DNA of 64,000 bases from Bacteroidales bacterium (GCA_018434395.1 JAHDPK010000025.1:8374-72373), one strand, 5' to 3'. Counted from the stretch's first letter, positions 13,334 through 64,000 are shown. The notes: generated by a model from the letters alone, not told the origin. Made by a program: numbers and translations.

Positions 13334-16271
<2,938 letters not shown>

Positions 16272-16286
16272 AATTAAATAAATCAC

Positions 16287-17540: not shown

Positions 17541-17561
17541 AAATAATCTTTTCTTGCTTTC

Positions 17562-46993: not shown

Positions 46994-47162
46994 GATTTTT
47001 AATTTTATAATGAATATTTTTCTTAAATCCTACAAAGCTATATAATTATTTCAAATTGACTTTATGACACCTTGTCAGTTTTTCCTTTTGGCACAATGTT
47101 AGAAGCATTCCATACAGACTTTATAAAAATTAATTTTTGACAACAATTAAAATATAAATATT

Positions 47163-49070
47163 ATGGGAAAGATAATTGGAATTGACCTTGGTACAACCAA
47201 CTCCTGCGTTGCTGTAATGGAGGGAAATGAACCTACAGTCATAATTAACAGCGAAGGCAAAAGAACCACACCTTCGGTTGTTGCTTTTACCGAAAATGGT
47301 GAAAGAAAAGTTGGTGATCCTGCGAAAAGACAGGCTATAACAAATCCGGTAAGGACTATCTACTCAATTAAGAGATTCATGGGAGAGCCTTATGACAAGG
47401 TTAAAACTGAAATTGAACGTGTCACATACAAGGTTGAAAAGGGTGAAAATAATACAACCCGTATAAATATAGATGGGCGTCTTTATACTCCACAGGAGAT
47501 ATCAGCAATGATTCTTCAAAAGATGAAAAAGACAGCCGAAGACTATCTTGGACAAGAGGTTACTGAAGCTGTGATTACAGTTCCTGCATATTTCAGCGAT
47601 TCTCAAAGGCAAGCCACAAAAGAGGCCGGAGAGATAGCAGGCCTCAAAGTTAGAAGAATTATCAACGAACCTACAGCTGCTGCTCTCGCATATGGTCTTG
47701 ACAAGACTCATAAAGATATGAAGGTTGCCGTTTTCGACCTTGGTGGAGGTACATTCGATATATCTATACTCGAATTGGGTGATGGAGTATTTGAGGTAAA
47801 ATCCACAAATGGGGATACTCACCTTGGTGGTGATGACTTTGACCAAAAGATAATAGACTGGCTGGCAGAAGAGTTTATGAATGAAAACAGTGGCATTGAC
47901 CTGAGAAAAGATCCTATGGCGCTGCAAAGACTCAAGGAAGCAGCTGAAAAAGCTAAAATAGAGTTGTCAAGCCAAACAACCACAGAGATTAATCTTCCGT
48001 ACATCATGCCGGTTGATGGTATTCCTAAACACCTTGTAAAGACTTTGACTCGAGCAAAATTTGAACAACTTTGTGATTCCTTGATACAAAGAACTGTTGA
48101 ACCATGTCGCAAGGCATTAAGTGGTGCAAACCTTAAACCTTCGGACATCGATGAAGTAATTCTCGTTGGAGGTTCTACAAGAATACCTGCTGTACAACAG
48201 CTTGTTGAAAAATTCTTTGGCAAAACTCCAAGCAAAGGCGTTAACCCGGATGAGGTAGTTGCTGTAGGTGCTGCTATCCAGGGAGGTGTGCTTGCCGGAG
48301 ATGTTAAGGATGTGCTGTTACTCGATGTTACACCACTTTCTCTTGGTATCGAGACTTACGGTTCAGTAATGACAAAACTTATAGATGCAAATACAACTAT
48401 ACCAACCAGAAAGTCTGAAATCTTCAGCACTGCCAGCGACAATCAACCTTCTGTAGAGATTCACGTCCTTCAAGGTGAAAGACCAATGGCTAAGGACAAT
48501 AAAACTATCGGTCGTTTCCATCTGGACGGAATAGCTCCTGCTCCAAGAGGTGTGCCTCAAATTGAAGTTACCTTTGACATTGATGCTAACGGTATTCTGA
48601 ATGTCTCAGCAAAAGACAAAGGTACTGGCAAGGAGCAAAAAATACGTATTGAAGCATCATCAGGACTAACTGAGGCTGAAATCAAGAGAATGCGTGACGA
48701 AGCAAAAGCCAATGAAGCCGCTGATAGAGCCGAAAGAGAGAGAGTTGACAAAATCAACGCTGCAGATGGAATGATCTTCCAAACCGAGAAAAATCTTAAG
48801 GATTATGGAGACAAGATACCTGCAGACAAGAGAAGTGCAATTGAAAGTGCTCTTGCTCAACTCAAGGAAGCTCATAAAGCAGGAGATATAGCAGCCATCG
48901 ACAAAGCCATGGATAATATGAACAACGCATGGCACGCCGCTTCTGAAGACATGGCAAGAGCTGCTCAAAGTGGGCCTTCACAAAGTTCTTCCAGTGATTC
49001 AGGCTCTTCCACTGGCAGCAACGGCAGCGATAAAGAGGTCACCGATGTTGACTTTGAGGAAGTAAAGTAA
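47163..49070 (+). CDS. dnaK: molecular chaperone DnaK (Hsp70)
   Basis: [25 protein letters not shown] and a C-terminal acidic tail DVDFEEVK. Confidence 0.98.
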
Positions 49071-49105
49071 ACACAGAAACAAGTCTTAATCAAAAATAAG
49101 TAAAA

Positions 49106-49139
49106 AGCGGTAGTACAATGTGCTACTGCTTTTTTTTTG
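49106..49139 (+). terminator. rho-independent terminator of dnaK
   Basis: agcggtag / ctactgct 8-bp stem (one G-U pair) with a 9-nt loop, followed by T9 (49131-49139). Confidence 0.8.
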
Positions 49140-49430
49140 TTAAAAAAACTTACAATGTTCGGCGTTGGTCGCGCGTTGGACAAAAAATTGAGTATTCCTC
49201 ACAAAACGGCCAAAAGATACGTTTCCGACATCTGCAAAAACTGCAAGTTAATCCTTACAAAACACGATGAATACGCCAAAGTTTAACCCTCTAAGCCCCG
49301 CTTTCAAGTTTGAAACAAAATATTCTTTTTTTAAACTGGGATATCTAAAACTTATATTTATAAATCATTTTTAATATCAAAAAAAATCTTATTTTTGGAT
49401 AAAAGCTGTCAAGTCAAAATATCTACCACA

Positions 49431-49750
49431 ATGTTATTCTCAAACAGATTAAGACAATTACGAGCACAAAACAATCTACTACAACGCCAAATGTCTGCTG
49501 CTCTCCAATCGATACATGTCTATACAACAAAACAGAGCGCGGCGAACGCCGTGTTAAACGCGAACAGGTTATTGCACTTGCCAAAATATTCAAAGTAAAT
49601 CCAAACGATTTTTTATCCCTTTGGCTTTCCGACCGGATTATTGAAGTGTTAAAAAAAGAAAAAGAGTTGGCAGAAAAAGGATTGATTGTTGTACAAAAAT
49701 ATCTTAAAAATAATGTCAAAATTATCCGAAAGAATATTATCTATTATTGA
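49431..49750 (+). pseudogene. XRE-family HTH regulator disrupted by a 1-nt frameshift near 49506-49510
   Basis: One frame gives MLFSNRLRQLRAQNNLLQRQMSAALQ. From 49508 a different frame gives IDTCLYNKTERGERRVKREQVIALAKIFKVNPNDFLSLWLSDRIIEVLKKEKELAEKGL... Joined, they form a complete XRE HTH (…QMSAALQIDTCLYNKTERGER…). The sequence caatc looks like caaatc minus one A. Confidence 0.6.
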
Positions 49751-51050
49751 AGAATTAATAGACCAATACCAAGAGGACGACCGCTATAATCGTCCTTGGA
49801 TAATTGGTTTTAGCGGAGGAAAAGATTCTACCGTTCTGCTTACTTTGGTCTGGCTTGCACTTCTAAAAATCAAAGAAGACACCCCAAATGCAACTCTTAA
49901 GCGACAAGTTTATGTTGTTTGCAATGATACAATGGTAGAAAATCCTGTAATTGAAGAATATGTTAGTAATGTCCTACAAACCATTCAAAAAGCCGCCAAA
50001 GAACAGCAGCTACCGATTACAGTAAAAACTACCACACCACAAATTGAAGATACATTTTGGTGTTGCGTAATTGGCAAGGGTTATCCTGTGCCAAATAATT
50101 CATTCCGTTTCTGTACGGAAAAAATGAAGATTAAACCGACCTCAACATTAATAACCCATCAAGTCGCGGCGGACGGCGAAGCAATAATTCTAATCGGAAC
50201 ACGACTTGCAGAAAGTCAACAGCGGGCAAAATCAATCAAAAAACACGATATAAAAGGACACCGACTTTCAAAGCATCCGCTAAACCCAAACACTTACACT
50301 TATGCACCAATTAAAGAATTGATGTTAGAAGAAGTATGGTGGATTATCAATGCAATTCCTTCGCCTTGGGGCTTTGACAATCAGATTCTTTATAAAATCT
50401 ATATGGACGCTTCGGCAGACGATTACGAATGTCCTACTATTGTAACCAATGATTCCCACCGTAGCTGCGGACAAAGTCGCTTTGGTTGTTGGGTTTGCAC
50501 GGTTGTAAAAGAAGACAAATCAATGTCATCACTAATAAAAAACGGTGTTGGGTGGATGCAGCCCTTACTTGATTTTCGTAACAAATTGGTTGAAAATCGC
50601 AATGTTTCCGAAAAACGCAGTGAAACCCGGCGAAACGGACAAGCCGCCGTTGATAAAACAGGGCATAATATGGGCAACTACACAATGGAATACCGCATAC
50701 AACTTTTGCGGGAACTGCTCACAATCCAAAAAGACACACAGCAGTACCGTTCAAGCATTGACTTGATTACAAGCCAAGAACTGATTGCAATTCAAGTGAT
50801 GTGGTACAGGGACGGCAATTTTTCAACAACCGTAAATGATATTTACAACGAGGTTTATGGCTACGATTTGCAAAACGATAATATCAGTTTACAGGAAAGG
50901 CTTCTGCTCGAAAAATCATGCAACAATCCCGCTCATTATTCGCTCATTCAGGAGTTGCTTGCTTTGCAAAAAAATAAGGTACTGCTAATGAAAAAGTACG
51001 GACTTCAAACCGATTTAGAAGCTCGATTGGATAGTTTTATAAAGGGGTAA
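49713..51050 (+). CDS. dndC: DNA phosphorothioation sulfurtransferase DndC (PAPS-reductase/ATP-PPase fold)
   Basis: IIGFSGGKDST P-loop (SGGKDS at 49812-49829), FRFCTEKMKIKP and the Cys cluster CGQSRFGCWVCT. ATG at 49713. Confidence 0.9.
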   Translation: MSKLSERILSIIEELIDQYQEDDRYNRPWIIGFSGGKDSTVLLTLVWLALLKIKEDTPNATLKRQVYVVCNDTMVENPVIEEYVSNVLQTIQKAAKEQQLPITVKTTTPQIEDTFWCCVIGKGYPVPNNSFRFCTEKMKIKPTSTLITHQVAADGEAIILIGTRLAESQQRAKSIKKHDIKGHRLSKHPLNPNTYTYAPIKELMLEEVWWIINAIPSPWGFDNQILYKIYMDASADDYECPTIVTNDSHRSCGQSRFGCWVCTVVKEDKSMSSLIKNGVGWMQPLLDFRNKLVENRNVSEKRSETRRNGQAAVDKTGHNMGNYTMEYRIQLLRELLTIQKDTQQYRSSIDLITSQELIAIQVMWYRDGNFSTTVNDIYNEVYGYDLQNDNISLQERLLLEKSCNNPAHYSLIQELLALQKNKVLLMKKYGLQTDLEARLDSFIKG

Positions 51051-51054
51051 CAGT

Positions 51055-53172
51055 ATGAAAATAAAAACCATAGAACTAAATAATTACCGCCTCTATAAAG
51101 GGATTAATAAAATTGTTTTTCCAAATGGGAACAACAAGAATTTATACTTGATTTCTGGAGAAAACGGCTTTGGTAAAACTACATTTTTGCATTCTCTATT
51201 ATGGTGCTTATATGGTCGTTTGATGATAGATATTGATGAAACATTTCGTAAAGAAATGTCGAATGGAGGATACAACAATATGGTTATCAATAATCTAAAT
51301 CAAATTTGCAGACAAAAATTGCATACTGAAGTTACCCAAAGTATTCTTACACGCATAAAAAAAGAAGGTTATTCTGTTGATACTGAATTCATAAAAGAAT
51401 GGTCTCAATATTATGTTACTTTGGAATTTACAGATATACTTATTCCGTCAATTCCGTGTCAATCGTTGAAAATTATTCGTTCGTACGATATTCTTTTAGA
51501 TAAAGAAAATGTTGAAATTCTAATTGATGGCTTAATAAACGAATTGACAAGCGAAATTGGAAATGAGGTTTTTATTAATGATTTTATTCTCAATAAAGAT
51601 ATTGCTCGCTTCTTCTTTTTCGATTCAGAAAAAATTGTATCACTCGCTGAAACTAATACCATAGATGAAAAGCGCAAACTTTGTTCGGCTTACAATGAGG
51701 TTTTGGGAGTGAAAAAATACGAGGACTTGAAGAAAAACCTTGAAAATATGCGCTTACGTTTCCGTCGTAAATCTGATGATGTTGATAGCCGCAACAAATT
51801 GAACAGTTTACTTTCAAAACAAAAATCTCTGAATGAAACCATTGCTGAACAAGAACAACAAACCGCCGACCTCGACAGCCAACTGATATTGTTAAGAAAG
51901 GAAGATGAAAACCTGCAAATGCTACTTTTGCGAGAAGGCAATGGTACAACTATCGAAGAACTCAATCGGCAGGAAGCACTTTTGGAAACCACTCGAAAAA
52001 AAGATGCTGAATACAAACAACAACTCAAACTGTTTTTGGAATACGCACCTTTTGCAATTTCCGGAAAACTGTTACAGCAGACAAAAGTACAGATAGAGAA
52101 GGATTTTAATATTCTTCAATCTCAAAATGATGTTAGAAATCAGAATTTTCTATTAAGCAATATCAATGCTGAAATGCAGCAAGTGTTCAACAATATAAAA
52201 ATTTCTGCCAAAGACAAAAAACAATTAGTTGATTCGTTTAACAATATTATTTCCAAATATCAAACCAATACAACAGACGAAACGCCATTATTGAGAGTAA
52301 GCAAGGAAGATTTCGACGAGTTTTTGGCTGTATATTCAAATATTACAACAACTTACAGAGTTGAATTTGAGTACCTTGCAGATGATTACCGTAAAAACAA
52401 ACAGGTAATGGAACGTACAGCCAGGAATATATCTAATATGAACAGTAAAGAAAATGATAATATAATAAAATCTATTCGTAGACGAAAAAATGAAAGTGAA
52501 CGAAGAATTGCTGAATTGGAACAAAAAATCCGTCAGTTGCACGAGGAGCGTGGCGCAATAAACAAAGAATTAGCAGTTATAAGTCGCCAAATTTCGGAGT
52601 TAAGTAAAAAAGTGAGTCTTGATGATAGTAACAGCAAGAAAGATAAAGTTGCTGAGCAACTTATATCAGAACTAAATACATTTCTTATTTTACTGAAAAA
52701 AGAAAAAAAATCGGCTCTTGAAAGCCGTATAAAAACCACGATGAACAACTTAATGCATAAGGCAGATTTTATCCAAAATGTTGATGTTGTGGTGGTAGAT
52801 GATATAATAGATATAAATCTTTATGCTACAGTGGGTAGCATAATAAAAAAAGAATCTTTATCGAAAGGGGAGCAACAACTCTTTGCAACTTCTCTACTCA
52901 AAGCACTTGTGGAAGAATCAGGTATACAATTTCCTGTCTTTATTGACAGTCCCTTACAGAAGTTTGATAAGAGCCACGCAAAAAAAATCATTACAGAGTT
53001 TTACCCAACAGTTTCCAAACAGGTTATTTTATTCCCATTGTTACATAAAGAGTTAACTGAAGAAGAATTGGAAACAATGAAGCCTTATGTGAATTCCGCT
53101 TTTGTGCTGAAAAATAATAATTTATATTCACACATTCAGCAGGTTGATATTAATAATTTAATGAAAGAGTAA
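51055..53172 (+). CDS. dndD: DNA phosphorothioation ABC/SMC-like ATPase DndD
   Basis: IELNNYRLYKG...ISGENGFGKTTFLHSLLWCLYG (Walker A at 51157-51183), long central coiled coil, signature LSKGEQQLFA and Walker B FPVFIDSPL. Confidence 0.85.
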   Translation: MKIKTIELNNYRLYKGINKIVFPNGNNKNLYLISGENGFGKTTFLHSLLWCLYGRLMIDIDETFRKEMSNGGYNNMVINNLNQICRQKLHTEVTQSILTRIKKEGYSVDTEFIKEWSQYYVTLEFTDILIPSIPCQSLKIIRSYDILLDKENVEILIDGLINELTSEIGNEVFINDFILNKDIARFFFFDSEKIVSLAETNTIDEKRKLCSAYNEVLGVKKYEDLKKNLENMRLRFRRKSDDVDSRNKLNSLLSKQKSLNETIAEQEQQTADLDSQLILLRKEDENLQMLLLREGNGTTIEELNRQEALLETTRKKDAEYKQQLKLFLEYAPFAISGKLLQQTKVQIEKDFNILQSQNDVRNQNFLLSNINAEMQQVFNNIKISAKDKKQLVDSFNNIISKYQTNTTDETPLLRVSKEDFDEFLAVYSNITTTYRVEFEYLADDYRKNKQVMERTARNISNMNSKENDNIIKSIRRRKNESERRIAELEQKIRQLHEERGAINKELAVISRQISELSKKVSLDDSNSKKDKVAEQLISELNTFLILLKKEKKSALESRIKTTMNNLMHKADFIQNVDVVVVDDIIDINLYATVGSIIKKESLSKGEQQLFATSLLKALVEESGIQFPVFIDSPLQKFDKSHAKKIITEFYPTVSKQVILFPLLHKELTEEELETMKPYVNSAFVLKNNNLYSHIQQVDINNLMKE

Positions 53173-53175
53173 GTT

Positions 53176-53571
53176 ATGTTTTCGCAGATACGGACGAGTA
53201 GTCAAAACCGAGAAATTGTTGTTGAATTAACGCGTAAATTCAATTTGGGTGCTGAAAATATAATTGCCCGAATTGCGCTTGGATATTCATTACAATCAGG
53301 GATTAAATTCTCACCGTTGGATGTAAAAGACTCAGGCGGTAAGGTATATAGCAAAAATGTGTTGTTTGGAAATAACTATTCGATCTATGAATTTCTAATT
53401 TGTACACATTATCAGATTAACAGTAACGACAAAGATTTACCTCGGTATTTTAAATTGCACCTTGATGATGGGCTGCAACGTATATATGATGACATGAAAG
53501 ACAATCCCAATTTAGTGGGATATGATTATTTATTTGAAAAAATACAAAATGGTTTGGGTGAATTATGTTAA
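53176..53571 (+). CDS. dndE: DNA sulfur modification protein DndE
   Basis: 131 aa directly after dndD. IRTSSQNREIVVELTRKFNLGAENIIARIALGYSL parallels the DndE N-terminus as I remember it (…TGITPNIAARIAF..S…). Confidence 0.7.
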   Translation: MFSQIRTSSQNREIVVELTRKFNLGAENIIARIALGYSLQSGIKFSPLDVKDSGGKVYSKNVLFGNNYSIYEFLICTHYQINSNDKDLPRYFKLHLDDGLQRIYDDMKDNPNLVGYDYLFEKIQNGLGELC

Positions 53572-55868
53572 AAGGAGATTTAAAAAAAATTACAATTAAA
53601 GATTTGCTGAGAGATGGCAAAATATCTGTTCGCACAAGTAATTGTTGCTTTAATGCAGCCTTTGAATCTCTTTTTGATATATTAAAATATTATGAAAGTA
53701 GACATTCTTTTTTTAACATTAGAAATGCTGGAAGAAAAACTTGTTCTGAATTAGAAAATTTATGTAAAGAATATATTCCGCAAATTGAAATATCCGTTGA
53801 TACAGATGGCTTTTCTGAGAATGAAAATGAGGCTGAGAATGAAAATGTAAGACAAGCCGAAGTAGAAATTTTAATTAAGGAGGATGTTATTGGAGCAATT
53901 AATAATAAACTAATAGATGACAAAGATATTCTTTCTTATTTGGGAGTAAGGCAAAAGGAAATTCTTGAGAAAAAATTTGAAGATTGTATTAAAAAATATT
54001 CCATTCGCACAAAAAATCGACTAACTTCCGTTGGCTTTGATAATTTTGTGATTAATTATTTATTTGTCGAAAACCAGGCTCTATTAAAGATTAATGGTTT
54101 AGGAAAAAAGAGTTTAGAAGAGGCTATAGATTTGAAAAATAAAATAAAAGAGGAATGCCTATATTTAATTAATTTACCCGAAGAAGATATAGCAAGATTA
54201 AATTTGGTTCGCAAAAAAGTAGATATCATTCTAAATAGCTTTGTTGATGAATTTTATAAGATAAATAATTATTTGCCAATGTTTTGGATTTTGGAACAAA
54301 ATCTCGTTACAAGCAAAAATCGCAATATTGACATTCTGATAGACACATTCCCTGTTTTTCAAAATTACCAATCCAGAACATTTAAAGATATTGCAGCAAA
54401 ATATGATATAACAAGAAAAAGAATTAGGCAAATACGTAACTACACATTTCACAATACATTTGAAATAACCAATGAAGTAATTGATTATAAGAAAAATAGT
54501 GATTTAATCAAATACGCCGAATTGTTACAAAATAAAGATGATTGGAAATATATTTTAGAATTTTTGCAGGGTAAAGAGGTTATAAACCAAGAATCATTTG
54601 AGATTCAAGAATTATTGAAAAAAGAACAATGCAATCTATCGGCTCTGTTTGTATTGCAAATCATTGCATATATATTCAGGGATAAATACTTTCTTTTGGG
54701 CGGATTGAGCATATCAAATCAAAGTAAAAATAACACATTTCTCATCCGTAAAGAATTCGCAGACATTTTCAATTTTGAAAAATTTATTGAAGAATTTGCG
54801 AGCCATATTGCTGAAAATGAAACAGAATATGATTTAAATGTTGACGAGTTTTTATCTAATAGTACGTGTTGGGTTCATGGGATTGATCTATATAAATTTG
54901 ATAATATAGTTCACATTGTGAAAGAGATTATATTAAATGAATTTCACTTATATTCTAATCTTGACGGTTTAATTACGATTCCTTCAACGAAAGGAAGAAA
55001 CCCGCGTGATGTGGTTTATGATATACTAAAAGTAAAAGGCGAACCAATGCACCTCCATGATATTTTTGTTGAGTTTAAGAAAATTATGCCAGAACATAAA
55101 TACACACAAGAAGATAATCCAGATAGATTACGCCCCTATTTACAAAAGCACGAATCCATATCATACAGAAACAGAAGGAGTATTTACACACTAAAAGAGT
55201 GGAAACACATACGGACAGGAACAATACGTGATGCTATCATAAATTTTTTGGAAGATAAAGATTTACCACAATCAGTAGATGATATTACAGAGTATGTTTT
55301 ACTGCATTTCCCAGAAACAAACATTGCAAGTGTGCGAACAAGTATGTTTAATGATACACAAAAACGATTTTCGTTTTTTGGTGATGGCCTGTTTGGATTA
55401 GTAAGCAAAGAATATCCTGCCGAATACAAAGAAATAAAACAGCAGGAAGGACAAAGAAAATCGTTTGAACAACGACTTTATGATTTAGAAAAGTTTCTTT
55501 CCGAAAACGACCATTACCCTTTTTCTTCTTCCGATAACGAAGAAGAAAACTCTTTGTATCGTTGGTGGCGAATAATAAATAGAGACCCAAAATTGTCCGA
55601 ACTCCAAAAGGCAGAAATAGAAAGAATAAAAAATCAATATGCAGATTTCGATACAGAAAAAAAAGTTTACGAATGGTTTTGTCATTTCAATGATTTTAAA
55701 CTTTTTGTGCTTGAAAATCACCGTTTACCTTCATCAAACGGTCCAGAAAAATTTTTGTATGGTTGGTTCCGTAGAGCAAAAGACGATTTTTTAAACGATC
55801 GTTTAAATGAGAAACAAAGGACAAAATATGCAGAATTTTTTAAAGAGATAAAGTATGTTGAAAGATAA
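53565..55868 (+). CDS. 767-aa multi-DNA-binding-domain protein (2x RpoA-alphaCTD-like HhH, sigma70-r4-like HTH, 2x HARE-HTH-like, 2x helicase-associated (HA)-like repeats)
   Basis: aa 9-68 and 128-190 match the alphaCTD pattern (SVRTSNC..NA...N.G.K..SE.). aa 272-293 is DIAAKYDITRKRIRQIRN. aa 481-616 holds two wHTH-like units. aa 634-762 holds W/F-rich repeats. No catalytic motif was seen. Confidence 0.55.
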   Translation: MLKGDLKKITIKDLLRDGKISVRTSNCCFNAAFESLFDILKYYESRHSFFNIRNAGRKTCSELENLCKEYIPQIEISVDTDGFSENENEAENENVRQAEVEILIKEDVIGAINNKLIDDKDILSYLGVRQKEILEKKFEDCIKKYSIRTKNRLTSVGFDNFVINYLFVENQALLKINGLGKKSLEEAIDLKNKIKEECLYLINLPEEDIARLNLVRKKVDIILNSFVDEFYKINNYLPMFWILEQNLVTSKNRNIDILIDTFPVFQNYQSRTFKDIAAKYDITRKRIRQIRNYTFHNTFEITNEVIDYKKNSDLIKYAELLQNKDDWKYILEFLQGKEVINQESFEIQELLKKEQCNLSALFVLQIIAYIFRDKYFLLGGLSISNQSKNNTFLIRKEFADIFNFEKFIEEFASHIAENETEYDLNVDEFLSNSTCWVHGIDLYKFDNIVHIVKEIILNEFHLYSNLDGLITIPSTKGRNPRDVVYDILKVKGEPMHLHDIFVEFKKIMPEHKYTQEDNPDRLRPYLQKHESISYRNRRSIYTLKEWKHIRTGTIRDAIINFLEDKDLPQSVDDITEYVLLHFPETNIASVRTSMFNDTQKRFSFFGDGLFGLVSKEYPAEYKEIKQQEGQRKSFEQRLYDLEKFLSENDHYPFSSSDNEEENSLYRWWRIINRDPKLSELQKAEIERIKNQYADFDTEKKVYEWFCHFNDFKLFVLENHRLPSSNGPEKFLYGWFRRAKDDFLNDRLNEKQRTKYAEFFKEIKYVER

Positions 55869-58023
55869 AGATTTCAAATACAGATATTCAACAGGCAGAA
55901 AAGATTTGCCGATTGATTTTTTTGAGTTGGCATTGTCTAATAGCACTAAACTTGATATAGGGTTGGGTTATTTTAGTAGTGCTTCTTTTAATATCCTTTC
56001 TGTCGGCTTTGCTCGTTTTATCTGTAATGGAGGAAATATGCGTTTGTATATCAATCAATATCTTACCGAAGATGATTACAAACTACTACAGAACAATGAA
56101 ACTATTGATTTTGAAGAACGTATATTACAATCTTTTTTCTTACTAAAAACTACCTTATCGAAAAGGGACGAACATTTTTTCAAATGTTTGTCATATCTTA
56201 TTAGGAATAAAAGAATTGATATTAAAATAGTTATACCAAAGGATGGTGGTTTGGCACACGAAAAGTTTGGTATTTTTACAGATGATAACAACGATAAAGT
56301 GTCTTTTACCGGCTCAATGAATTTAACAGCTGCGGCATTGGTAAAAAACATTGAAACAATTGAATGTACTTGTTCATGGAAAGGTGAAGACAACACGGAA
56401 CGTATAGAAATAAGCGAACAAGATTTTGCGGAAATTTGGACAGGGGCAAACGACAATGTGTTAGTTTTTCCTGCAAAGAAATTCTGCCAAGAGATAGTAA
56501 AAACTTTTCCCAAAGTAGATTTGGACGAGTTGTTATTACAAGAGAAAGAAATAATTAAGAAACTCACAAACAAACAGATAGAAGAAATATCGACGGAAAA
56601 GAAACAAGTACAATTGCCTCATTTCCCTTACAAATATTCTGACGGTGCAAGACCGTATCAAATACAAGCGTACGAAGCGTGGGTTAAAAATGGTAAGCAG
56701 GGTATTTTTGCAATGGCAACAGGAACAGGAAAAACAATTACTTCTTTAAATTGCGCTTTGCAGGAGTACCATAAAGACAAATCGTATCAACTTTTGATTT
56801 TAGTTCCGACCATTGCTTTAGTTGAACAGTGGATTAATGAAATTGGCTTGTTTGACTTCAAAAATATTATCGAAATATATTCTGAAAATTCACAGTGGCG
56901 CAGACAAATTGTTTCACTAAAAAACAAAATTCAACAAGGCAGTAACGAAAATTTTGTCATTGTATCTACTTATCAATCATTTACAAACGATGATTTTCAA
57001 CAAATTTTACCGAAACTTCCCGATACAATGCTACTGATTGCAGATGAAGCACACAATATCGGCTCTGAAAATGTTAGAGCGGCTTTTAGAAAAATGAAAA
57101 TTAAAAAGCGCATTGCATTGTCGGCAACTCCGAACCGGATATACGACCAAGAAGGAACAGCCGAATTGGAAAGTTTTTTTAATGATAAACCGCCTTATGT
57201 TTATAGTTTTCCAATGAGCCAAGCAATAAAAGAAGGTCGTTTAATGGAGTACTGTTATTATCCAAAAATGGTTTATCTCAACGAGCCGGAAATGGATAAG
57301 TATGTGGAATATACTAAAAAATTAATGAATCTGTTTGATAGTGAAACAGGTAAGCTCAGAAACGAAGACGAAGCGACAAAAATTTTAATGTTGCGGAAAC
57401 AAGTATTGCATAAAGCAGAAGATAAAATGCGAGTATTGCGAGAAATTATTACAGAAATCGGACAGGACAAATTAAAATACTGTTTTGTTTATGTTCCCGA
57501 AGGCTATTCTGAAAACGAGGATGAAAGCATATTGCAAAGAATGCTATACACTATCAAAGAAGCATTTCCTAAAACAACTTGCAATACATATACTGGAAAT
57601 AACAACAAAAAAGAGCGTTCCGCTATTTTGAGTGGTTTTGAAAACGGCGACATAGCTGTTTTACTCGCAATGAAATGTTTAGACGAGGGCGTTGATGTTC
57701 CTAGAGCCCAATATGGTATTTTTGCGTCAAGCACAGGTAATCCTCGACAATTTATTCAACGTCGTGGTCGTTTACTACGTAAACACCCGGACAAAACATT
57801 TGCTTACATATATGATATGATTGTAGTACCTGATTTTCAATCACCACAATACTCGAATGATTTTTTCAGAATGGAAAGGTCATTGGTAAGAGGCGAACTA
57901 GCACGAGTGGCATATTTTGCTGATTTGGCATCTAACACTCATTCTGCGAAAGAGGTTTTGCAGGGTCTTGCAGACTATTATCAATTAAATTTATCAGAAC
58001 TAATTTTAAGTATAAATCAATAA
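55855..58023 (+). CDS. PLD-family (HKD) nuclease domain fused to an SF2 DEAH-box helicase (type III restriction Res-like)
   Basis: HKD motif AHEKFGIFTDD...FTGSMNLT (H135/K137 at 56257-56265). Helicase motif I AMATGTGKT (56716-56736), motif II DEAH (57043-57054), SATP, and motif VI QRRGRLLR. Confidence 0.85.
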   Translation: MLKDKDFKYRYSTGRKDLPIDFFELALSNSTKLDIGLGYFSSASFNILSVGFARFICNGGNMRLYINQYLTEDDYKLLQNNETIDFEERILQSFFLLKTTLSKRDEHFFKCLSYLIRNKRIDIKIVIPKDGGLAHEKFGIFTDDNNDKVSFTGSMNLTAAALVKNIETIECTCSWKGEDNTERIEISEQDFAEIWTGANDNVLVFPAKKFCQEIVKTFPKVDLDELLLQEKEIIKKLTNKQIEEISTEKKQVQLPHFPYKYSDGARPYQIQAYEAWVKNGKQGIFAMATGTGKTITSLNCALQEYHKDKSYQLLILVPTIALVEQWINEIGLFDFKNIIEIYSENSQWRRQIVSLKNKIQQGSNENFVIVSTYQSFTNDDFQQILPKLPDTMLLIADEAHNIGSENVRAAFRKMKIKKRIALSATPNRIYDQEGTAELESFFNDKPPYVYSFPMSQAIKEGRLMEYCYYPKMVYLNEPEMDKYVEYTKKLMNLFDSETGKLRNEDEATKILMLRKQVLHKAEDKMRVLREIITEIGQDKLKYCFVYVPEGYSENEDESILQRMLYTIKEAFPKTTCNTYTGNNNKKERSAILSGFENGDIAVLLAMKCLDEGVDVPRAQYGIFASSTGNPRQFIQRRGRLLRKHPDKTFAYIYDMIVVPDFQSPQYSNDFFRMERSLVRGELARVAYFADLASNTHSAKEVLQGLADYYQLNLSELILSINQ

Positions 58024-58034
58024 ATTTTCAAGAA

Positions 58035-58253
58035 ATGACAGCAGAAGATATTTTCAACGAGGTGATGAAATCGCCAGAATTAACAGACATTTTCAACATT
58101 CCACAAGAAGTTCTGAATAATATGGATTACAATGCGAGTTCGGAATATCAGGTCATTGAAGTTATCAAAGCAATTATTCGTGGGGAAGAAAACCATATGG
58201 ATAGTAACGCAATTTTTAGAAGTATTCAAAATCAAATAATACACTTAGGGTAA
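58035..58253 (+). CDS. 72-aa acidic hypothetical protein
   Basis: ORF tightly packed between the helicase (11-nt gap) and the ATPase (3-nt gap). No recognisable motif. Confidence 0.4.
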   Translation: MTAEDIFNEVMKSPELTDIFNIPQEVLNNMDYNASSEYQVIEVIKAIIRGEENHMDSNAIFRSIQNQIIHLG

Positions 58254-58256
58254 AAT

Positions 58257-60428
58257 ATGGCGACAATAATTAAATCCATTAGTTTCCAAAACTTCTACAA
58301 CTATTACGGAAATTTTGAGCAAAACACCTACCGTTTTACGACAGGAATCAATATTGTTAATGCTGATAACAATATGGGAAAATCCAAATTCTACAACGGT
58401 ATTCTCTGGATTTTGAATAATGCTGTTTACGATTCAGACTTAAAAAGAATGATAAGCGACACCTCCAGTCCAAGATTAGATTCTAATTATTTTAAAAAAA
58501 TGGTCTCGGGAAAAGCAAAAGCCGAAGAAACGGAGTTTGATATGGGAGTAAAAATTGAATTTGAAGAAAATAACACTCAATATTCTGTGTCAAAAATTGT
58601 GCATTGTAAAAAAAATATTTCTGATTGGGATTTTATTGAAAGATTAGATGTTTCTGAAACCACCAATGGCAGAACAATTCCTATTTTTGATATTGAGGAT
58701 AAGAAAAATAGAATACAAAAAATCATTCCTGTTGAATTACGAAACTACGCGTTGCTGCAAGGTGAATCAATGGAAAAATTAGTTGATTTATCCTCTCGCG
58801 CTGGTCTTTCCTCAACCATTGAAACTTTGGCTGGAATTTCAAATCTCATTGATATTTATTTGACTTGTGGTGATTTGTCAAAGAAAGCAAAGAGACTTTT
58901 AAACGACAAAGAAACTGAAGTGAACCTCAATAATGATCGAATCAAAATTTTAATTGAGGAAAGAGAGCGACTTGAAAAGTTCAAAGAAAACAACCTGTAT
59001 CAAATTGATACATATAAGGAAGAATTATCAAAAGCCCAAGCAAGGAAAGATGAGTTGGAAGCATTGCAGCTTAACGCAGCTAAACGAGAAAAATTTAGAG
59101 AAATTCAACGGCATCTCCAAGTGGAAATCAACACTCTGAAAAACAATAAGAAAGAAGCGGAGAAAAACATTACTTCATTATTATTTGCTAACAATCCACC
59201 TTGGTTGCTGATGGGCTTCCAAAACTCTATAGAATTGTTTGGGCAGAAACGCGACAAACTGAATAAAGACCTTACTTTGCAAAGTGCAGCAAAAGACCCA
59301 ACGATTCTTTTACCTGAAGGCTCTCCCGATATCCCGTCATTAAAAAGAATGTTAGAAACTGAAAAATGTGAAGTTTGCGGACGTCCAGCTCCAAAAGGTT
59401 CTGAATTTTGGGAACATATCAAAATGGTTATGGAACGTCCTCGAAATGTCGAAAATACAAATTCTAACAATTTTACTACTTTTTACGGAGATATTCAGAA
59501 AACTGTCGGTTCATTTTTGTTGAATATCCCAGAAATACCACAAGAAATTGAAAAATATCGCGACAAAATCAATGACATTGACAATAAAATCAGAGAGAAA
59601 CAGGAAGATTACAACATTGCAAAACAGGAATTTATGAGTGCAGGCGGTAATGAAAACGAATCAGGTAATACAGATAAAAAAAATATTGATGATCATTCAT
59701 TAGCAGAACGCACAATAGAAGATAAAAAACGCTTAATTGAAATGGCTAACGACCAAATTAGGCAATGGAATATTCGATTGCAACAGATTGAAAAAGAATT
59801 GGATTCTATCAATCAAAGTTCAGAAATCACACAATATCGTAATTTCAAAGATATGATGTGTTATATTGAGTCAATGTTTTTAAACTCGAAAGAACGCATT
59901 TTTGATAGGATTTTGAACTCGTTAGAAATCAAAGCTAATCAAAAATATAGCGAACTTACAGCGGGCAATCAGGTTGCAGGTGGTCGCTTATGTTTCAAAA
60001 AACAAGAAGATAATACCGTTCAGGTTTCCATAAGGAACATAAATGACAACGAACTAACAGGACTTGGATCAGGGTTCCAGCGAATGAAACAACTGTCTAT
60101 CGTAATGGCAATTATTTCTTCGAGAATTGGCAATCAACACTTTGATTTTCCGTTTATATCAGATGCACCGTTTTCCGAGTTTGGCGACAACTTTATTTAC
60201 AACTTTTTCCGAATTTCCCCTCAGGTATTTACGCAAAGTATCATACTTATCAAAGATTTATATGACCCCAATACAGATAATTATTTGAATGAAAAGGGGA
60301 ACAAAATTTTAGAGAAGATGAGAAGCGGCGAGATTTGCGGCACTTTCTATGTAAATACTGTACTAGAAAGAGCTGATGCAACAAATTTAGTTACAAATAA
60401 TAAATGTTATTTTCCAGATAAATTCTAA
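58257..60428 (+). CDS. Rad50/SMC/DndD-like ATPase with central CxxC
   Basis: N-terminal ISFQNFYNY...NADNNMGKSKF (Walker A at 58362-58385) and long K/E-rich coiled-coil segments. CEVC lies at aa 371-374 of 723 (59367-59378). C-terminal signature-like GLGSGFQRMKQLS and Walker B-like FPFISDAPF. Confidence 0.75.
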   Translation: MATIIKSISFQNFYNYYGNFEQNTYRFTTGINIVNADNNMGKSKFYNGILWILNNAVYDSDLKRMISDTSSPRLDSNYFKKMVSGKAKAEETEFDMGVKIEFEENNTQYSVSKIVHCKKNISDWDFIERLDVSETTNGRTIPIFDIEDKKNRIQKIIPVELRNYALLQGESMEKLVDLSSRAGLSSTIETLAGISNLIDIYLTCGDLSKKAKRLLNDKETEVNLNNDRIKILIEERERLEKFKENNLYQIDTYKEELSKAQARKDELEALQLNAAKREKFREIQRHLQVEINTLKNNKKEAEKNITSLLFANNPPWLLMGFQNSIELFGQKRDKLNKDLTLQSAAKDPTILLPEGSPDIPSLKRMLETEKCEVCGRPAPKGSEFWEHIKMVMERPRNVENTNSNNFTTFYGDIQKTVGSFLLNIPEIPQEIEKYRDKINDIDNKIREKQEDYNIAKQEFMSAGGNENESGNTDKKNIDDHSLAERTIEDKKRLIEMANDQIRQWNIRLQQIEKELDSINQSSEITQYRNFKDMMCYIESMFLNSKERIFDRILNSLEIKANQKYSELTAGNQVAGGRLCFKKQEDNTVQVSIRNINDNELTGLGSGFQRMKQLSIVMAIISSRIGNQHFDFPFISDAPFSEFGDNFIYNFFRISPQVFTQSIILIKDLYDPNTDNYLNEKGNKILEKMRSGEICGTFYVNTVLERADATNLVTNNKCYFPDKF

Positions 60429-60432
60429 AACA

Positions 60433-60933
60433 ATGGACGGTTCAGTATTAAAAGATAAAATAGGCCAAAAAAGACCCGGGTATAGAGAACAATATCGTTC
60501 TTTGATTGAAAGTATTTCGGTTAAAGGAGACACAAGCGGAAAAGGGGATTTTTCTGCCTTTGGAGCTTTCTATCAAACCTATATGTATGCTTTTGTTATT
60601 GGTTACAAATTAGGAACACCAAAATTTATAAAAAAAGGTGAAAATACAATCAATTTTGCTTCTTTCGTAGATTGGAAGCCAACTTTAGTAAGGGATTTTA
60701 TTTTGATGCTGTTACTCAATGATACAGAAAAATATAGTGTTCCATATTCTTGGTTAGAATTGGAGAATGCTAACGAAGAAACGATTGAGAATTTTATTGC
60801 CGAATTGTTTCGACAAATGGAAGGTTATGCAAATGCGGGTTTTGAATATTTGCAAGACAAGTGGGATAATGAAAAGATTGAGTTTCAAGACCCATTTGTG
60901 TTTGTTAATTTTTTATTGGGCTTGAAAGAGTAA
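60433..60933 (+). CDS. 166-aa hypothetical protein, last intact gene of the dnd-linked operon
   Basis: 4-nt gap after the ATPase gene. No catalytic motif. It may belong to the database family named DNA phosphorothioation-associated protein 4, but I cannot verify this. Confidence 0.45.
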   Translation: MDGSVLKDKIGQKRPGYREQYRSLIESISVKGDTSGKGDFSAFGAFYQTYMYAFVIGYKLGTPKFIKKGENTINFASFVDWKPTLVRDFILMLLLNDTEKYSVPYSWLELENANEETIENFIAELFRQMEGYANAGFEYLQDKWDNEKIEFQDPFVFVNFLLGLKE

Positions 60934-60937
60934 ATTT

Positions 60938-61120
60938 ATGCCCGAAACTCAAAACATGAATCACAAATTCATTTTGGATAGTCAATTCTCCTTCAAAGGC
61001 AACGATTTCTGGGCAGTCTTCCACAGAGACATTTACAACAAAGAGGATATAAGCAAGTTAGGACTGAACGAAAGGCAAATTAAAGCCATTCTTTATGTGA
61101 AAGAAAACGGACGTATATGA
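60938..61120 (+). pseudogene. short remnant resembling the C-terminal HTH region of Fic/AlbA_2-type ATP-binding regulators
   Basis: …LGLNERQIKAILYVKENGRI* matches the common …LNERQ.KAL.YVKENGKITN.EY… element but stops inside the HTH. It lacks the usual ~400-aa N-terminal part. Confidence 0.35.
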
Positions 61121-61160
61121 TACTCCCCAGTTTTCAACCACCAGGAATGGTTTTTAAGTT

Positions 61161-61188
61161 GTAAGCATCTGAGAGTCTGTGCAAAAAC
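61161..61188. repeat. left terminal inverted repeat
   Basis: gtaagcatctgagagtctgtgcaaaaac. It matches the reverse complement of 62161-62188 at 26 of 28 positions (CT versus TC at positions 9-10). Confidence 0.85.
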
Positions 61189-62160
61189 TAATTACAATCT
61201 TTTTACAATTACACCTTTAAATGTTCTAAAATAACTTGCATTATCGATAGAAAAATTGTATATTTAGCTGTAATTTAATTTGTTAGATATGCAACATGTT
61301 ATTGGTGAAGATAGAAATCAGTTCCAAATTATGTGTTTAGAACAATTGGTTCCGGAAAATTCCTGGGCAAGAGTAATTGATCTATTTGTTGAATTACTTC
61401 CTCGACTACATTGACAAAAAAGTTGCAGAATATGAAGCTCAATTAGACGAGTCTGATGCAGAGGATAAGGCAGTTCTCAAGGAAAAGATTCAATTGAAAC
61501 TTAACAGATGCCAAAAATAAATTACTAGTTCATTCTCATATTAGAGGTACAACAGACAAACGAGAACTGGCTACTGTTGCACTCGAAGTACAAGAATTAC
61601 TGGGGAAAGAAACTTTTAATACTCTCAGTGATGCAGGTTACTCTACAGATGATCAGCTTAGTATTTGTAAGGATTCCAGTATTTGCACTTATTCGTCACC
61701 TATGCCAAGCACTTCACCTTATGATAATTGCCTGCCCATCCGGTGAAAGGATGACTTGTGGCTCCGGTAAAAAATGTCAAATGAGAGAAATGTGCACGCA
61801 GAATAAAGGAGGGAGAGTTATCGAAAGAAGTGAATTTCAGGATATAATTGATGAGAACAATAGGAGAGTTATTGACAACCCTGATTATTACAAACTTCGA
61901 AGAGCAATAATTGAACATCCTTTACCATAATGAGGGGCAAGAAAAATGTAATGAGTGAAGCCTATATCCTTATGATTATTTATAATCTTAAACGTTGTTT
62001 GTCAATAATGGGAGAAAAAGACTTTAGAGATAAGATTTGTTGCCAATTTAATTGTAATAATAATTCCCATTATTTGAAAATCAATTTTATGAGAGCCTAA
62101 TATCCTTATTATAAAAACTAGTATAAAAAACCAATCAGTAGGCACTTCGTTTAAAAAGTG

Positions 62161-62188
62161 GTTTTTGCACAGACTCTCGAATGCTTAC
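62161..62188. repeat. right terminal inverted repeat
   Basis: gtttttgcacagactctcgaatgcttac. Confidence 0.85.
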
Positions 62189-62451
62189 GTTCATTTTGTG
62201 TTTTTTAGTCTTCTATTAGTCTTCTATTTGTGTTGTGAATAATTGTTTATCTTTGTTTATTCCGATATGATTCACAAAATAAAAAAGTAAAAAACATAAC
62301 AAAGGATGCTGTTCGCTTATAAAATCGGAGATAAAAGGCTATGCAATGCGATAGAGCGCAAATATTAATGTAAATCAATATTGGAAAAATGAAATCTAAT
62401 ATGAATTAACGAACAAGTATTAAATACAGCAGAGAAAAAATAAGAACTATA

Positions 62452-64000
62452 ATGACTAACGAACAAGAACGCGACGAGCTTCACCGCACGATATGGCAGA
62501 TAGCCAACGACCTTAGAGGCAGTGTTGATGGATGGGATTTCAAATCATACGTGATAGGTATGCTGTTTTACCGCTTCATATCCGAAAACCTGACTTCCTT
62601 CATTAACGAAGGAGAACGGCGGGCGGGAAATCCCGACTTCGATTATGCAAGCATTTCCGACGAGGAAGCCGAATTCGGAAGAAGCGAAACCGTGAAGGAT
62701 AAGGGGTTTTACATACTGCCTTCCGAGCTTTTTGAGAATGTGCGCCGTAACGCCAAAAACGATCCTAACCTCAACGAAACGCTGAGCCGTGTTTTCAAAA
62801 ACATTGAAGATTCTGCCAAAGGTATGCCGAGCGAAAAAGACTTTAAAGGCCTATTCGATGATATTGATGTCAACAGCAATAAACTCGGACCTACGGTTGC
62901 CAAGAGAAACGAAAAGCTGGTGAAGATCATTAATGCCGTTGGCGATTTGCAACTGGGCGATTATCAAGACAATTCCATCGATACTTTTGGCGACGCTTAT
63001 GAATACCTGATGACCATGTATGCAAGTAATGCAGGCAAGTCGGGAGGCGAATTTTTCACCCCTCAGGAGGTCTCCGAACTACTTGCCCGAATTGCCGTGG
63101 TAGGAAAAACCGAAGTCAACAAGGTGTATGATCCTGCCTGCGGATCGGGTTCCCTTTTGCTCAAATTTGCCAAAGTCCTCGGCAAGGAAAACGTTCGGTT
63201 GGGTTTTTTCGGTCAGGAAATCAATCTCACCACCTACAACCTTTGCCGCATCAACATGTTTTTGCACGATATCGGATTCGAAAAATTCGACATAGCCCAC
63301 GGCGACACCCTCATCGATCCCAAACACTGGGACGATGAGCCATTTGATGCCATCGTTTCCAATCCGCCTTATTCCATCCGGTGGGAAGGCGACAGCAACC
63401 CTCTACTGATCAACGACCCCCGTTTTTCTCCCGCCGGCGTACTGGCACCAAAGAGCAAAGCCGATTTGGCTTTCACCATGCACATGCTCAGTTGGTTGTC
63501 CACAACGGGTACGGCTGCCATCGTAGAATTTCCCGGCGTGCTCTATCGCGGAGGTGCTGAGCAGAAAATTCGCAAATACCTTATCGACAACAATTATGTG
63601 GATGCAGTCCTTCAGCTGCCTCCAGATTTGTTTTTCGGCACTACCATAGCCACATGCGTTATTGTACTCAAAAAAAGCAAGGCAGACAATGCCGTGCTCT
63701 TCATCGACGCTTCAGCCGAATTTGTACGCGGCGGCAACAAAAACAAGCTCAGCGAAGCTAATCGCGAAAAAATTCTCGATGCTTATGTTGCGCGTCACGA
63801 TATTGACCACTTTGCCCGGCTGGTTCCCAACAGCGACATTGCCGAAAACGAGTACAACATTGCCGTGAGCAGCTACGTGGAGCAGAATAACGAGACCGAA
63901 GAAGTGGATATCGAAAAACTGAACGCCCGCATTGCCGAGATCGTCATCCGCCAGCAAAAACTTCGCGAAGCTATCGATGAAATTGTGGCCGATTTGGAAG
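62452..64000 (+). CDS. hsdM: type I restriction-modification system methyltransferase subunit HsdM (3' end beyond window)
   Basis: Own translation from the ATG at 62452 gives MTNEQERDELHRTIWQIANDLRGSVDGWDFKSYVIGMLFYRFISENL (HsdM_N). Also GEFFTPQEVSELL, SAM motif VYDPACGSGSLL and NPPY at 63361-63372. No stop before the window end, so it is absent from the ORF track. Confidence 0.93.
   Translation, partial: MTNEQERDELHRTIWQIANDLRGSVDGWDFKSYVIGMLFYRFISENLTSFINEGERRAGNPDFDYASISDEEAEFGRSETVKDKGFYILPSELFENVRRNAKNDPNLNETLSRVFKNIEDSAKGMPSEKDFKGLFDDIDVNSNKLGPTVAKRNEKLVKIINAVGDLQLGDYQDNSIDTFGDAYEYLMTMYASNAGKSGGEFFTPQEVSELLARIAVVGKTEVNKVYDPACGSGSLLLKFAKVLGKENVRLGFFGQEINLTTYNLCRINMFLHDIGFEKFDIAHGDTLIDPKHWDDEPFDAIVSNPPYSIRWEGDSNPLLINDPRFSPAGVLAPKSKADLAFTMHMLSWLSTTGTAAIVEFPGVLYRGGAEQKIRKYLIDNNYVDAVLQLPPDLFFGTTIATCVIVLKKSKADNAVLFIDASAEFVRGGNKNKLSEANREKILDAYVARHDIDHFARLVPNSDIAENEYNIAVSSYVEQNNETEEVDIEKLNARIAEIVIRQQKLREAIDEIVADLE

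Follow-up and report, generated by a model that had tools for sequence, protein, structure and literature searches.

The PbeABCD module, also called the CxC-ABC-ATPase system, was named by Xiong et al. in 2019 in Haloterrigena jeotgali A29, where PbeA was described as a protein with phospholipase D (PLD), ResIII and Helicase_C domains (PMC6459918). PbeABCD was demonstrated to confer about 10^4-fold protection in a haloarchaeal host; this protection required DNA phosphorothioate (PT) modification supplied in trans, and PT-modified virus escaped it. The genes pbeB, pbeC and pbeD were essential, and the ΔpbeA mutant kept less than 10-fold resistance. On Southern blots the viral (SNJ1) DNA was intact and not visibly cut, and its replication was halted. 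Loss of the dnd genes was not toxic, and PbeABCD in the absence of PT was neither toxic nor protective (PMC6459918). Here, we analyzed a 64,000-nucleotide stretch of DNA from a Bacteroidales bacterium (GCA_018434395.1 JAHDPK010000025.1:8374-72373; the window), in which an open reading frame (ORF) of the plus strand at 55855..58023, encoding 722 residues, almost certainly belongs to the PbeA family.

Rakesh et al. (2024) re-annotated PbeA as an "HKD endoDNase fused to an SF2 helicase module" (SF2, superfamily 2), and described PbeC as a CxC zinc-hook ATP-binding cassette (ABC) ATPase, PbeD as a DndE cognate, and PbeB as a small disordered, fast-evolving protein (PMC10853773). In that study, 936 bacterial taxa were found to have tandem DndDE plus CxC-DndE systems, and cleavage of DNA was argued to be a necessary part of the mechanism. 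According to a 2025 review, it is still not clear what the restriction event consists of (PMC12707154); we found no biochemical or structural study of PbeA in the literature from 2022 onward, and no PbeA structure in the PDB.

The Bacteroidales locus resembles the DndCDEA-PbeABCD system of H. jeotgali A29 closely: its PbeA has the same order of PLD, ResIII and Helicase_C domains and about equal size (PMC6459918; PMC10853773; TIGR04095), the dnd genes lie directly upstream, and genes for a small protein, a zinc-hook ABC ATPase and a protein of about 160 residues follow. It differs in that the host is bacterial, the operon contains no dndA, and an extra gene of 767 codons with multiple helix-turn-helix (HTH) modules (orf767) stands between dndE and pbeA. 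PbeA of the window is an ordinary member of the published family, within a complete and typical dndCDE-pbeABCD operon. An earlier reading of this DNA, made from the sequence alone (the sequence-only reading), had treated the PLD-helicase layout as unfamiliar, which was mistaken: this layout is the defining PbeA architecture (PADLOC E=5.8e-252; TIGR04095; PMC6459918; PMC10853773). The finding is a re-discovery without new biology, as PbeA already has hidden Markov models (HMMs) in both PADLOC and NCBIfam and is the subject of two papers. What value remains lies in the question of how PbeABCD stops viruses. The near-perfect conservation of the HKD motif is a sequence-level argument for catalysis despite the reported absence of DNA cleavage, and Bacteroidales operons offer two natural experimental handles, namely the extra multi-HTH gene and a lineage in which the catalytic His is replaced by Tyr and nucleases have been added.

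Several other systems share parts of this design. SauUSI, an ATP-dependent type IV enzyme of S. aureus (PDB 7CLG; PMC7913695), likewise carries an N-terminal single-HxK PLD nuclease, a linker and an SF2 translocase in one chain, and was the best structural match for both whole PbeA and its nuclease domain. SauUSI alone, however, has a coupler and a C-terminal SRA-like target-recognition domain (TRD) in its 953 residues, recognizes 5-methylcytosine and 5-hydroxymethylcytosine, and works by itself, whereas PbeA has no TRD, needs PbeBCD, is linked to PT, and shares only 12-14% sequence identity with SauUSI. In the CglI and NgoAVII (R2H2) enzymes, too, a PLD nuclease is associated with a helicase-like SF2 ATPase, and NgoAVII-R was a structural match of the PbeA N-terminal domain (4rct, 3.3e-5), with a weak match to Pfam RE_NgoFVII PLD; their nuclease and ATPase are nevertheless separate subunits, the nuclease bears a B3-like DNA-binding domain, and there is no ABC ATPase partner. 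DndFGH, like PbeABCD, is a restriction partner of Dnd-type PT modification, but it shows no homology, uses other nuclease and motor chemistry, and, unlike PbeABCD, is toxic in the absence of PT. Finally, the PLD_Helicase protein (NF042964, a phospholipase-D-like anti-phage protein of about 900 residues) resembles PbeA in its PLD N-terminal domain and the start of its helicase. The match was partial (residues 10-406, E=1.6e-19; PADLOC PLD_Helicase 2.4e-11), its score of 69.8 bits compares with a cut-off of 1100 bits, and length and context differ from those of PbeA.

Family assignment and domain architecture of PbeA

The pbeA ORF is intact in the translation of the window and begins with ATG. 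Homologue alignments begin at residue 1, where M1 is nearly invariant and L2 is invariant, and the start codon is therefore correct. PbeA matched the PADLOC PbeA model PDLC02706 over its full length at E=5.8e-252 (residues 11-709 against profile positions 3-722 of 722). It also matched the NCBIfam equivalog_domain model TIGR04095 (dnd_restrict_1, "DNA phosphorothioation system restriction enzyme") over residues 265-711 at E=1.2e-127, with 426.6 bits against a curated cut-off of 600 bits. PbeA of the window is, from these profile matches, a clear TIGR04095 homologue, although one under the trusted cut-off; such a score fits with public records that call its relatives only "DEAD/DEAH box helicase family protein". 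In a large protein database, 5923 homologues reached E<=1e-10; the best 120 have a common architecture, and one close homologue (P0043) bears the source name "DNA phosphorothioation system restriction enzyme". The closest genome record is a Paludibacteraceae metagenome-assembled genome (MAG; locus L001) with 99% identity. The earlier suggestion that the protein partners the adjacent dnd genes on the restriction side is right. PbeA is one subunit of a four-protein, here possibly five-protein, machine and not an effector that stands alone.

In sequence and structure models, PbeA consists of a PLD nuclease domain with one HKD motif, joined to a DEAH SF2 motor of the Res/XPB type, and this reading of the domains, already made from the sequence alone, is supported by Pfam, by the motifs, and by AlphaFold2 (AF2) and Foldseek. 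The PLD-fold nuclease domain, a single lobe, spans residues 1-222 (55855..56520), and the SF2 helicase/translocase core spans residues 263-660 (56641..57834), where ResIII, DEAD, Helicase_C and ERCC3_RAD25_C matched; a short helical C-terminal tail occupies residues 661-722 (57835..58020) in the secondary structure of the model. E-values for the Pfam families ResIII, DEAD and Helicase_C were 1.6e-28, 1.5e-17 and 2.9e-15, respectively, and the domain assignment is far above chance level. PLDc_2 scored 26.2 bits on the whole protein, just below its 27-bit cut-off, and 28.8 bits, over that cut-off, on residues 1-240 alone, so that a PLD family, ResIII and Helicase_C were all found as predicted, the first being borderline for the whole protein.

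Because the PLDc_2 score was marginal, residues 1-240 were modelled separately. The AF2 model, built on a 69-sequence alignment of diverse relatives, had a mean predicted local distance difference test score (pLDDT) of 90.6 and a predicted template-modelling score (pTM) of 0.88. In a Foldseek search against the PDB, all 36 matches listed at E<=1e-3 were PLD-fold proteins; the SauUSI nuclease domain came first (3.9e-7), followed by NgoAVII-R, Zucchini, BfiI, NucT and Nuc, and the others included FAM83, PLDs, phosphatidylserine synthase and PPK. The N-terminal domain thus combines a PLDc_2 match, a PLD fold and an intact HxK...GSxN motif, as expected of the PbeA family. The full-length AF2 model, based on 22 close homologues, modelled the HKD loop and RecA lobe 2 badly, and for the nuclease domain it is superseded by the 69-sequence model. 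Its top structural match was SauUSI (7clg; E=1.1e-16, 735 aligned columns), and XPB, ZorD, LlaBIII and SWI2/SNF2 ATPases came next. When the PbeA sequence was compared with solved structures, archaeal XPB/Rad25 was closest (1.5e-25), for the helicase part only. No TRD was found in PbeA: about 80 residues, forming three short helices, lie past motif VI, and there was no family match beyond residue 711.

A script motif search located the HKD segment AHEKFGIFTDDNNDKVSFTGSMNLT at residues 134-158 (56254-56328 on the plus strand, as are all PbeA motifs). Together with conservation, it defines the catalytic motif H135-x-K137 ... D143 ... G153-S-x-N156 (56257..56322), in which H135-E-K137 occupies residues 135-137 (56257-56265) and GSMN residues 153-156 (56311-56322). 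The sequence-only reading had placed the single HKD motif (H135/K137) at exactly these coordinates, and there is one HKD motif and one PLD lobe. In the SF2 module, which follows the nuclease domain with its ResIII and Helicase_C matches, the same search found motif I AMATGTGKT (residues 286-294, 56710-56736), motif II DEAH (residues 397-400, 57043-57054), motif III SATP (residues 423-426, 57121-57132) and motif VI QRRGRLLR (residues 635-642, 57757-57780). All four had been recognized previously, DEAH with exact coordinates; the start of motif I, then given as 56716, was 6 nt late.

Proposed mechanism and competing explanations

To assess conservation of the nuclease site, phmmer was run with PbeA residues 1-240 against 1.84 billion cluster representatives (50% identity), which yielded 2,521 relatives at E<=1e-3; residues were counted in the best 150 of these, 83 of which were of PbeA length. 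H135 and K137 were both present in 148/148 aligned relatives, N156 in 145/146 and S154 in 145/147. In the 69-sequence alignment (28-77% identity), the only invariant residues of the N-terminal domain were G38, G60, H135, K137, S154, N156 and E167. The HKD residues are almost universally conserved, and purifying selection of this kind on the catalytic set is best explained by real phosphodiesterase activity.

We propose that PbeA is the enzymatic subunit of PbeABCD, a dimeric, SF2-driven protein that is gated by its partners, relies on PT for self/non-self discrimination, and acts on unmodified DNA; we give this explanation as a whole a probability of roughly 60%. PbeABCD would be co-transcribed with the PT-writing module DndCDE. 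SauUSI forms a dimer via its PLD domains, in which two HxK motifs pre-form one site, and translocates in an ATP-driven manner (PMC7913695). The analogy with SauUSI and BfiI suggests that two protomers of PbeA may pair via their PLD domains to make one composite HxK site, and that the SF2 motors may use ATP to move along duplex DNA; we put this dimeric translocating-nuclease mechanism at even odds. As PbeA has no reader domain, it would be recruited by partners, and context and literature suggest that the zinc-hook ABC ATPase PbeC, paired with PbeD, and the small acidic PbeB would recruit and gate it, possibly joined in the Bacteroidales clade by the multi-HTH orf767 product. DndCDE, working with a cysteine desulfurase whose gene lies elsewhere, would write the PT marks by which host DNA is told apart from invader DNA. 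Most likely, invading DNA without these marks would be nicked or cleaved to a limited extent, which would block its replication.

The sequence-only reading had put forward a translocating nuclease licensed by PT status. Its PT dependence agrees with the archaeal system, in which PbeABCD defence depends on PT and PT-modified virus escapes; the nuclease activity, in contrast, is inferred from sequence, and in the archaeal system ΔpbeA left a small residual resistance while pbeB, pbeC and pbeD were absolutely required. The hypothesis of an effector nuclease that PT status licenses is reasonable and has been published before; it is partly at odds with the sole experimental study.

Several observations weigh against the proposed explanation. 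Viral DNA was intact on the Southern blots of that study, ΔpbeA retained some resistance, and a module that is neither toxic nor protective without PT does not fit with a simple enzyme that cuts whatever is unmodified (PMC6459918). The TIGR04095 score lies below the curated cut-off, and the full-length AF2 model had only a moderate pLDDT of 73.6. Furthermore, dndA or another cysteine desulfurase gene is absent from the operon, and a search of the 64-kb window with a regular expression for the pyridoxal phosphate-binding lysine, which is a weak test, found none. A housekeeping desulfurase can replace dndA in dnd systems that lack it, and a desulfurase encoded elsewhere in the genome may substitute for it here. 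Lastly, two clusters of PbeA relatives (P0112 and P0113) have Y-E-K in place of H-E-K, and P0113 occurs in many samples with a complete dndCDE-orf-pbeABCD operon (L021-23). The pbeA gene of L021-L023, at 9001-11241, has Tyr for the catalytic His (motif at nt 9394). Right after pbeD, these loci carry two extra genes, at 14155-17106 and 17187-18287, encoding HD-CE (983 residues) and HNH_4 (366 residues) proteins, which occur only in L021-23 and neither in the window nor in 20 other loci. The gain of adjacent HNH and HD-CE genes in this lineage suggests that another nuclease has taken over the function, not that the function could be dispensed with. As L021-23 are almost identical and stand for a single lineage, the observation is a lead and not a pattern.

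The main rival explanation is that PbeA works with PbeBCD as a translocase or remodeller powered by ATP, which halts the replication of unmodified viral DNA but leaves this DNA uncut; the PLD domain would then serve as a dimerization or DNA-clamping module. This would account for the halted replication without cleavage or degradation of SNJ1 DNA in vivo (PMC6459918), as well as for a complete operon without the catalytic His in the Y-E-K lineage. Nicks or rare breaks would, however, escape Southern blots, and the neighbouring HNH and HD-CE genes gained by the Y-E-K lineage suggest a replaced nuclease function. Moreover, about 150 representatives, with identities down to roughly 30%, show essentially no variation in the H, K, S and N residues of the HKD motif, which is hard to explain without catalysis. 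We thus consider an uncut replication block rather unlikely, at about a third of the weight given to the proposed nuclease.

Less probable still is an abortive infection mechanism, proposed as an alternative in PMC10853773, in which PbeB holds PbeA inactive until a viral trigger releases it to cut host and viral DNA, and spread is stopped at the level of the population. As a small, acidic protein that evolves fast (36-59% identity, compared with 57-74% for pbeA), PbeB would fit an inhibitor or a decoy. PT-modified virus nonetheless escapes fully, and the efficiency of plating of the virus drops by about 10^4-fold in plaque assays (PMC6459918), which looks like direct self/non-self discrimination; in addition, no growth-arrest or cell-death data are reported in the literature.

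It is very improbable that PbeA acts on its own as a SauUSI-like type IV restriction enzyme, dependent on modification, and only happens to be encoded beside the dnd genes. SauUSI is the best structural match, and weak PADLOC mREase_IV matches were seen on the helicase C-lobe; PbeA nevertheless ends 80 residues past motif VI without a TRD or SRA domain, has a full-length PbeA HMM match, and sits in an operon of overlapping genes with strict pbeBCD synteny in every locus with enough flank. A housekeeping XPB/Rad25-like repair helicase has a negligible probability, even though archaeal XPB/Rad25 proteins are the closest solved sequences (E=1.5e-25), in view of the N-terminal HKD nuclease domain, the low-GC island with an insertion sequence (IS) remnant, the patchy distribution, the constant presence of pbeC in related loci, and a score of 58 bits against the 610-bit cut-off of NF045503 XPB.

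The Bacteroidales operon and its partner genes

The operon comprises eight genes in the order dndC-dndD-dndE-orf767-pbeA-pbeB-pbeC-pbeD, pbeA being the fifth, all on the plus strand; they abut or overlap, with gaps of -14 to +11 nt. The orf767 gene (53565..55868) encodes 767 residues, and its ends overlap dndE (7 nt) and pbeA (14 nt). Its product consists solely of DNA-binding modules, namely RNA polymerase alpha-CTD-like helix-hairpin-helix (HhH), sigma-70 region 4 and HA modules, to which some relatives add HARE-HTH. RNA_pol_A_CTD and Sigma70_r4, both DNA-binding modules, exceeded their Pfam cut-offs; among 42 family members scanned, RNA_pol_A_CTD was found in 39, Sigma70_r4 in 37, HA in 12 and HARE-HTH in 5. 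A profile search of the PDB gave matches limited to the RNA polymerase alpha C-terminal domain and sigma region 4, and neither this search nor the domain scan of the 42 members detected a catalytic domain. The family forms 72 clusters in a database of 5.8 billion proteins, and those with a source description are all hypothetical except for one RNA-polymerase-derived UniRef name. The gene is syntenic in 11 loci with 43-62% identity, compared with 71-84% for pbeA, and appears to evolve faster than its neighbours; it does not occur in the distant Pbe loci L010, L014 and L019. The portion of the supplement text of PMC10853773 that we consulted does not mention an orf767-like component, nor was one found in the other literature searched. 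We tentatively suggest, as a possibility that is more doubtful than the nuclease mechanism itself, that in Bacteroidales-clade Pbe systems the orf767 product is a fifth component, reading the target or PT status for the TRD-less PbeA, and that the PbeA nuclease is a swappable module, as the His-less lineage with HNH and HD-CE genes gained beside pbeD would indicate.

Upstream, dndC, dndD and dndE are present and adjacent, as required for a PT modification module. The dndC gene (49686..51050) matched PADLOC DndC at 1.2e-140 and TIGR03183 with 407 bits against a 290-bit cut-off, and its product is predicted to be the PAPS (3'-phosphoadenosine 5'-phosphosulfate)-reductase-like sulfurtransferase of this module. 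Its true start is probably about 27 nt further downstream, because relatives align from residues 8-13. The identity of dndC was 80-87% in the related syntenic loci L002-L007, L010-L012 and L018, and 52-61% in the distant L014 and L019. The dndD gene (51055..53172; TIGR03185 5.4e-60; AAA_23) encodes a coiled-coil ABC ATPase without a zinc hook or CxxC, with a canonical Walker A motif GENGFGKT and Walker B motif VVVVDD. In PADLOC it scored best against a "PbeC" model (3.1e-115), and DndD came behind (1e-75); we assign it to DndD because it lies between dndC and dndE and has no hook. Automated annotation would probably report two PbeC genes in the window, given this "PbeC" score. The dndE gene (53176..53571) matched Pfam DndE at 1.4e-24 and TIGR03184 at 2.6e-15. 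The operon contains no dndB, and neither the proteins of the cluster nor the ten largest of the remaining ORFs in the window gave a PADLOC match to DndF, DndG or DndH; those ten ORFs, searched for other defence genes as well, gave only two marginal, unrelated matches.

The genes downstream of pbeA correspond to the Pbe partners, namely a small PbeB, a zinc-hook PbeC and a PbeD of about 150-170 residues, with synteny in 14 or more loci. The pbeB candidate (58035..58253) is an ORF within the 233 nt that separate pbeA from pbeC and encodes an acidic protein of 72 residues with an isoelectric point (pI) of 4.3. Its position is conserved in 14 loci with 36-82% identity, and it had no family match in PADLOC or Pfam profile scans; it fits with the published description of PbeB as small and fast-evolving (PMC10853773). 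The pbeC gene (58257..60428; PADLOC PbeC 3.9e-23) encodes a coiled-coil ABC ATPase with a C-x-x-C zinc hook, C-E-V-C, at residues 371-374 (59367..59378, plus strand). This CEVC motif, the Walker A motif ADNNMGKS and the Walker-B-like ISDAP are conserved in 16/16 loci. In all of these, the Walker-B-like motif F-I-S-D-A-P at residues ~630-640 has Ala at the position of the catalytic Glu of ABC ATPases, and the signature region reads GFQRMK where LSGGQ is expected. ATP hydrolysis by PbeC may be unusual or slow, because both the deviant Walker B and the deviant signature are conserved throughout.

The pbeD candidate (60433..60933; 166 residues, pI 4.9) gave a weak match to TIGR04062 dnd_assoc_4 (E=0.0036) and is conserved downstream of pbeC in 14 loci; the syntenic gene of L021, encoding 167 residues, has a precomputed Pfam match to PF27807 DNA_S_mod_dnd_assoc_4 that is marked weak. 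When the candidate was compared with DndE of the same operon, BLASTP found nothing, and hhalign of shallow locus-derived profiles gave a probability of 1.6%. The published claim that PbeD is a DndE cognate (PMC10853773) was thus not reproduced with shallow alignments.

Related loci and the genomic island

The eight-gene order recurs in L002-L007, L011 and L012, and also in L021-23. L018 contains dndC-dndD-dndE-orf767, and its pbeA match stops after about 128 residues; the more distant L010, L014 and L019 have dndCDE-pbeA... without orf767. Two distant relatives, from Emticicia agri and a Bacteroidota MAG, encode a cysteine desulfurase of the DndA/SspA type (L013, 3908-5041; L015, 8830-9963); its gene immediately precedes pbeA, the two genes overlap, and the flank examined contains no dndCDE. 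L005 (JADLKP010000032.1), on a contig binned as Methanobrevibacter sp., contains a complete operon whose proteins are 73-89% identical to the Bacteroidales versions, apart from orf767 (56%) and pbeB-D (54-64%); a binning error is more likely than a recent inter-domain transfer.

Within the window, the operon belongs to an island of low GC content that was inserted behind dnaK in a Bacteroidales genome resembling Paludibacteraceae. GC content in the island is 0.28-0.37 (up to 0.41 in dndC), compared with 0.38-0.43 in the upstream housekeeping genes (aldolase, gmk, panB and dnaK). The region downstream of pbeD (60938-61930) contains a truncated ORF of 60 codons and broken IS1182 fragments, which mark the edge of the island begun after dnaK (49071). 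Decayed IS1182-type transposase remnants at 61280..61930 (plus strand) consist of broken small ORFs, a 117-residue fragment of which matched NF033551 IS1182 at E=7e-4. A repeat search of the island returned only chance-level AT-rich matches and no flanking repeats, a tRNA scan found no tRNA near the island, an Rfam scan of 47000-64000 found no RNA families, and a terminator scan found none after pbeD. GC content rises to 0.50 at 63000-64000, a segment without long ORFs or an Rfam match. In the 615-nt gap between dnaK and dndC, an ORF of 67 codons (49395-49598, plus strand) has an N-terminus (FSNRLRQLRAQNNLLQRQMSAAL) that reads like an XRE-type HTH, and its product may be a decayed or small regulator.

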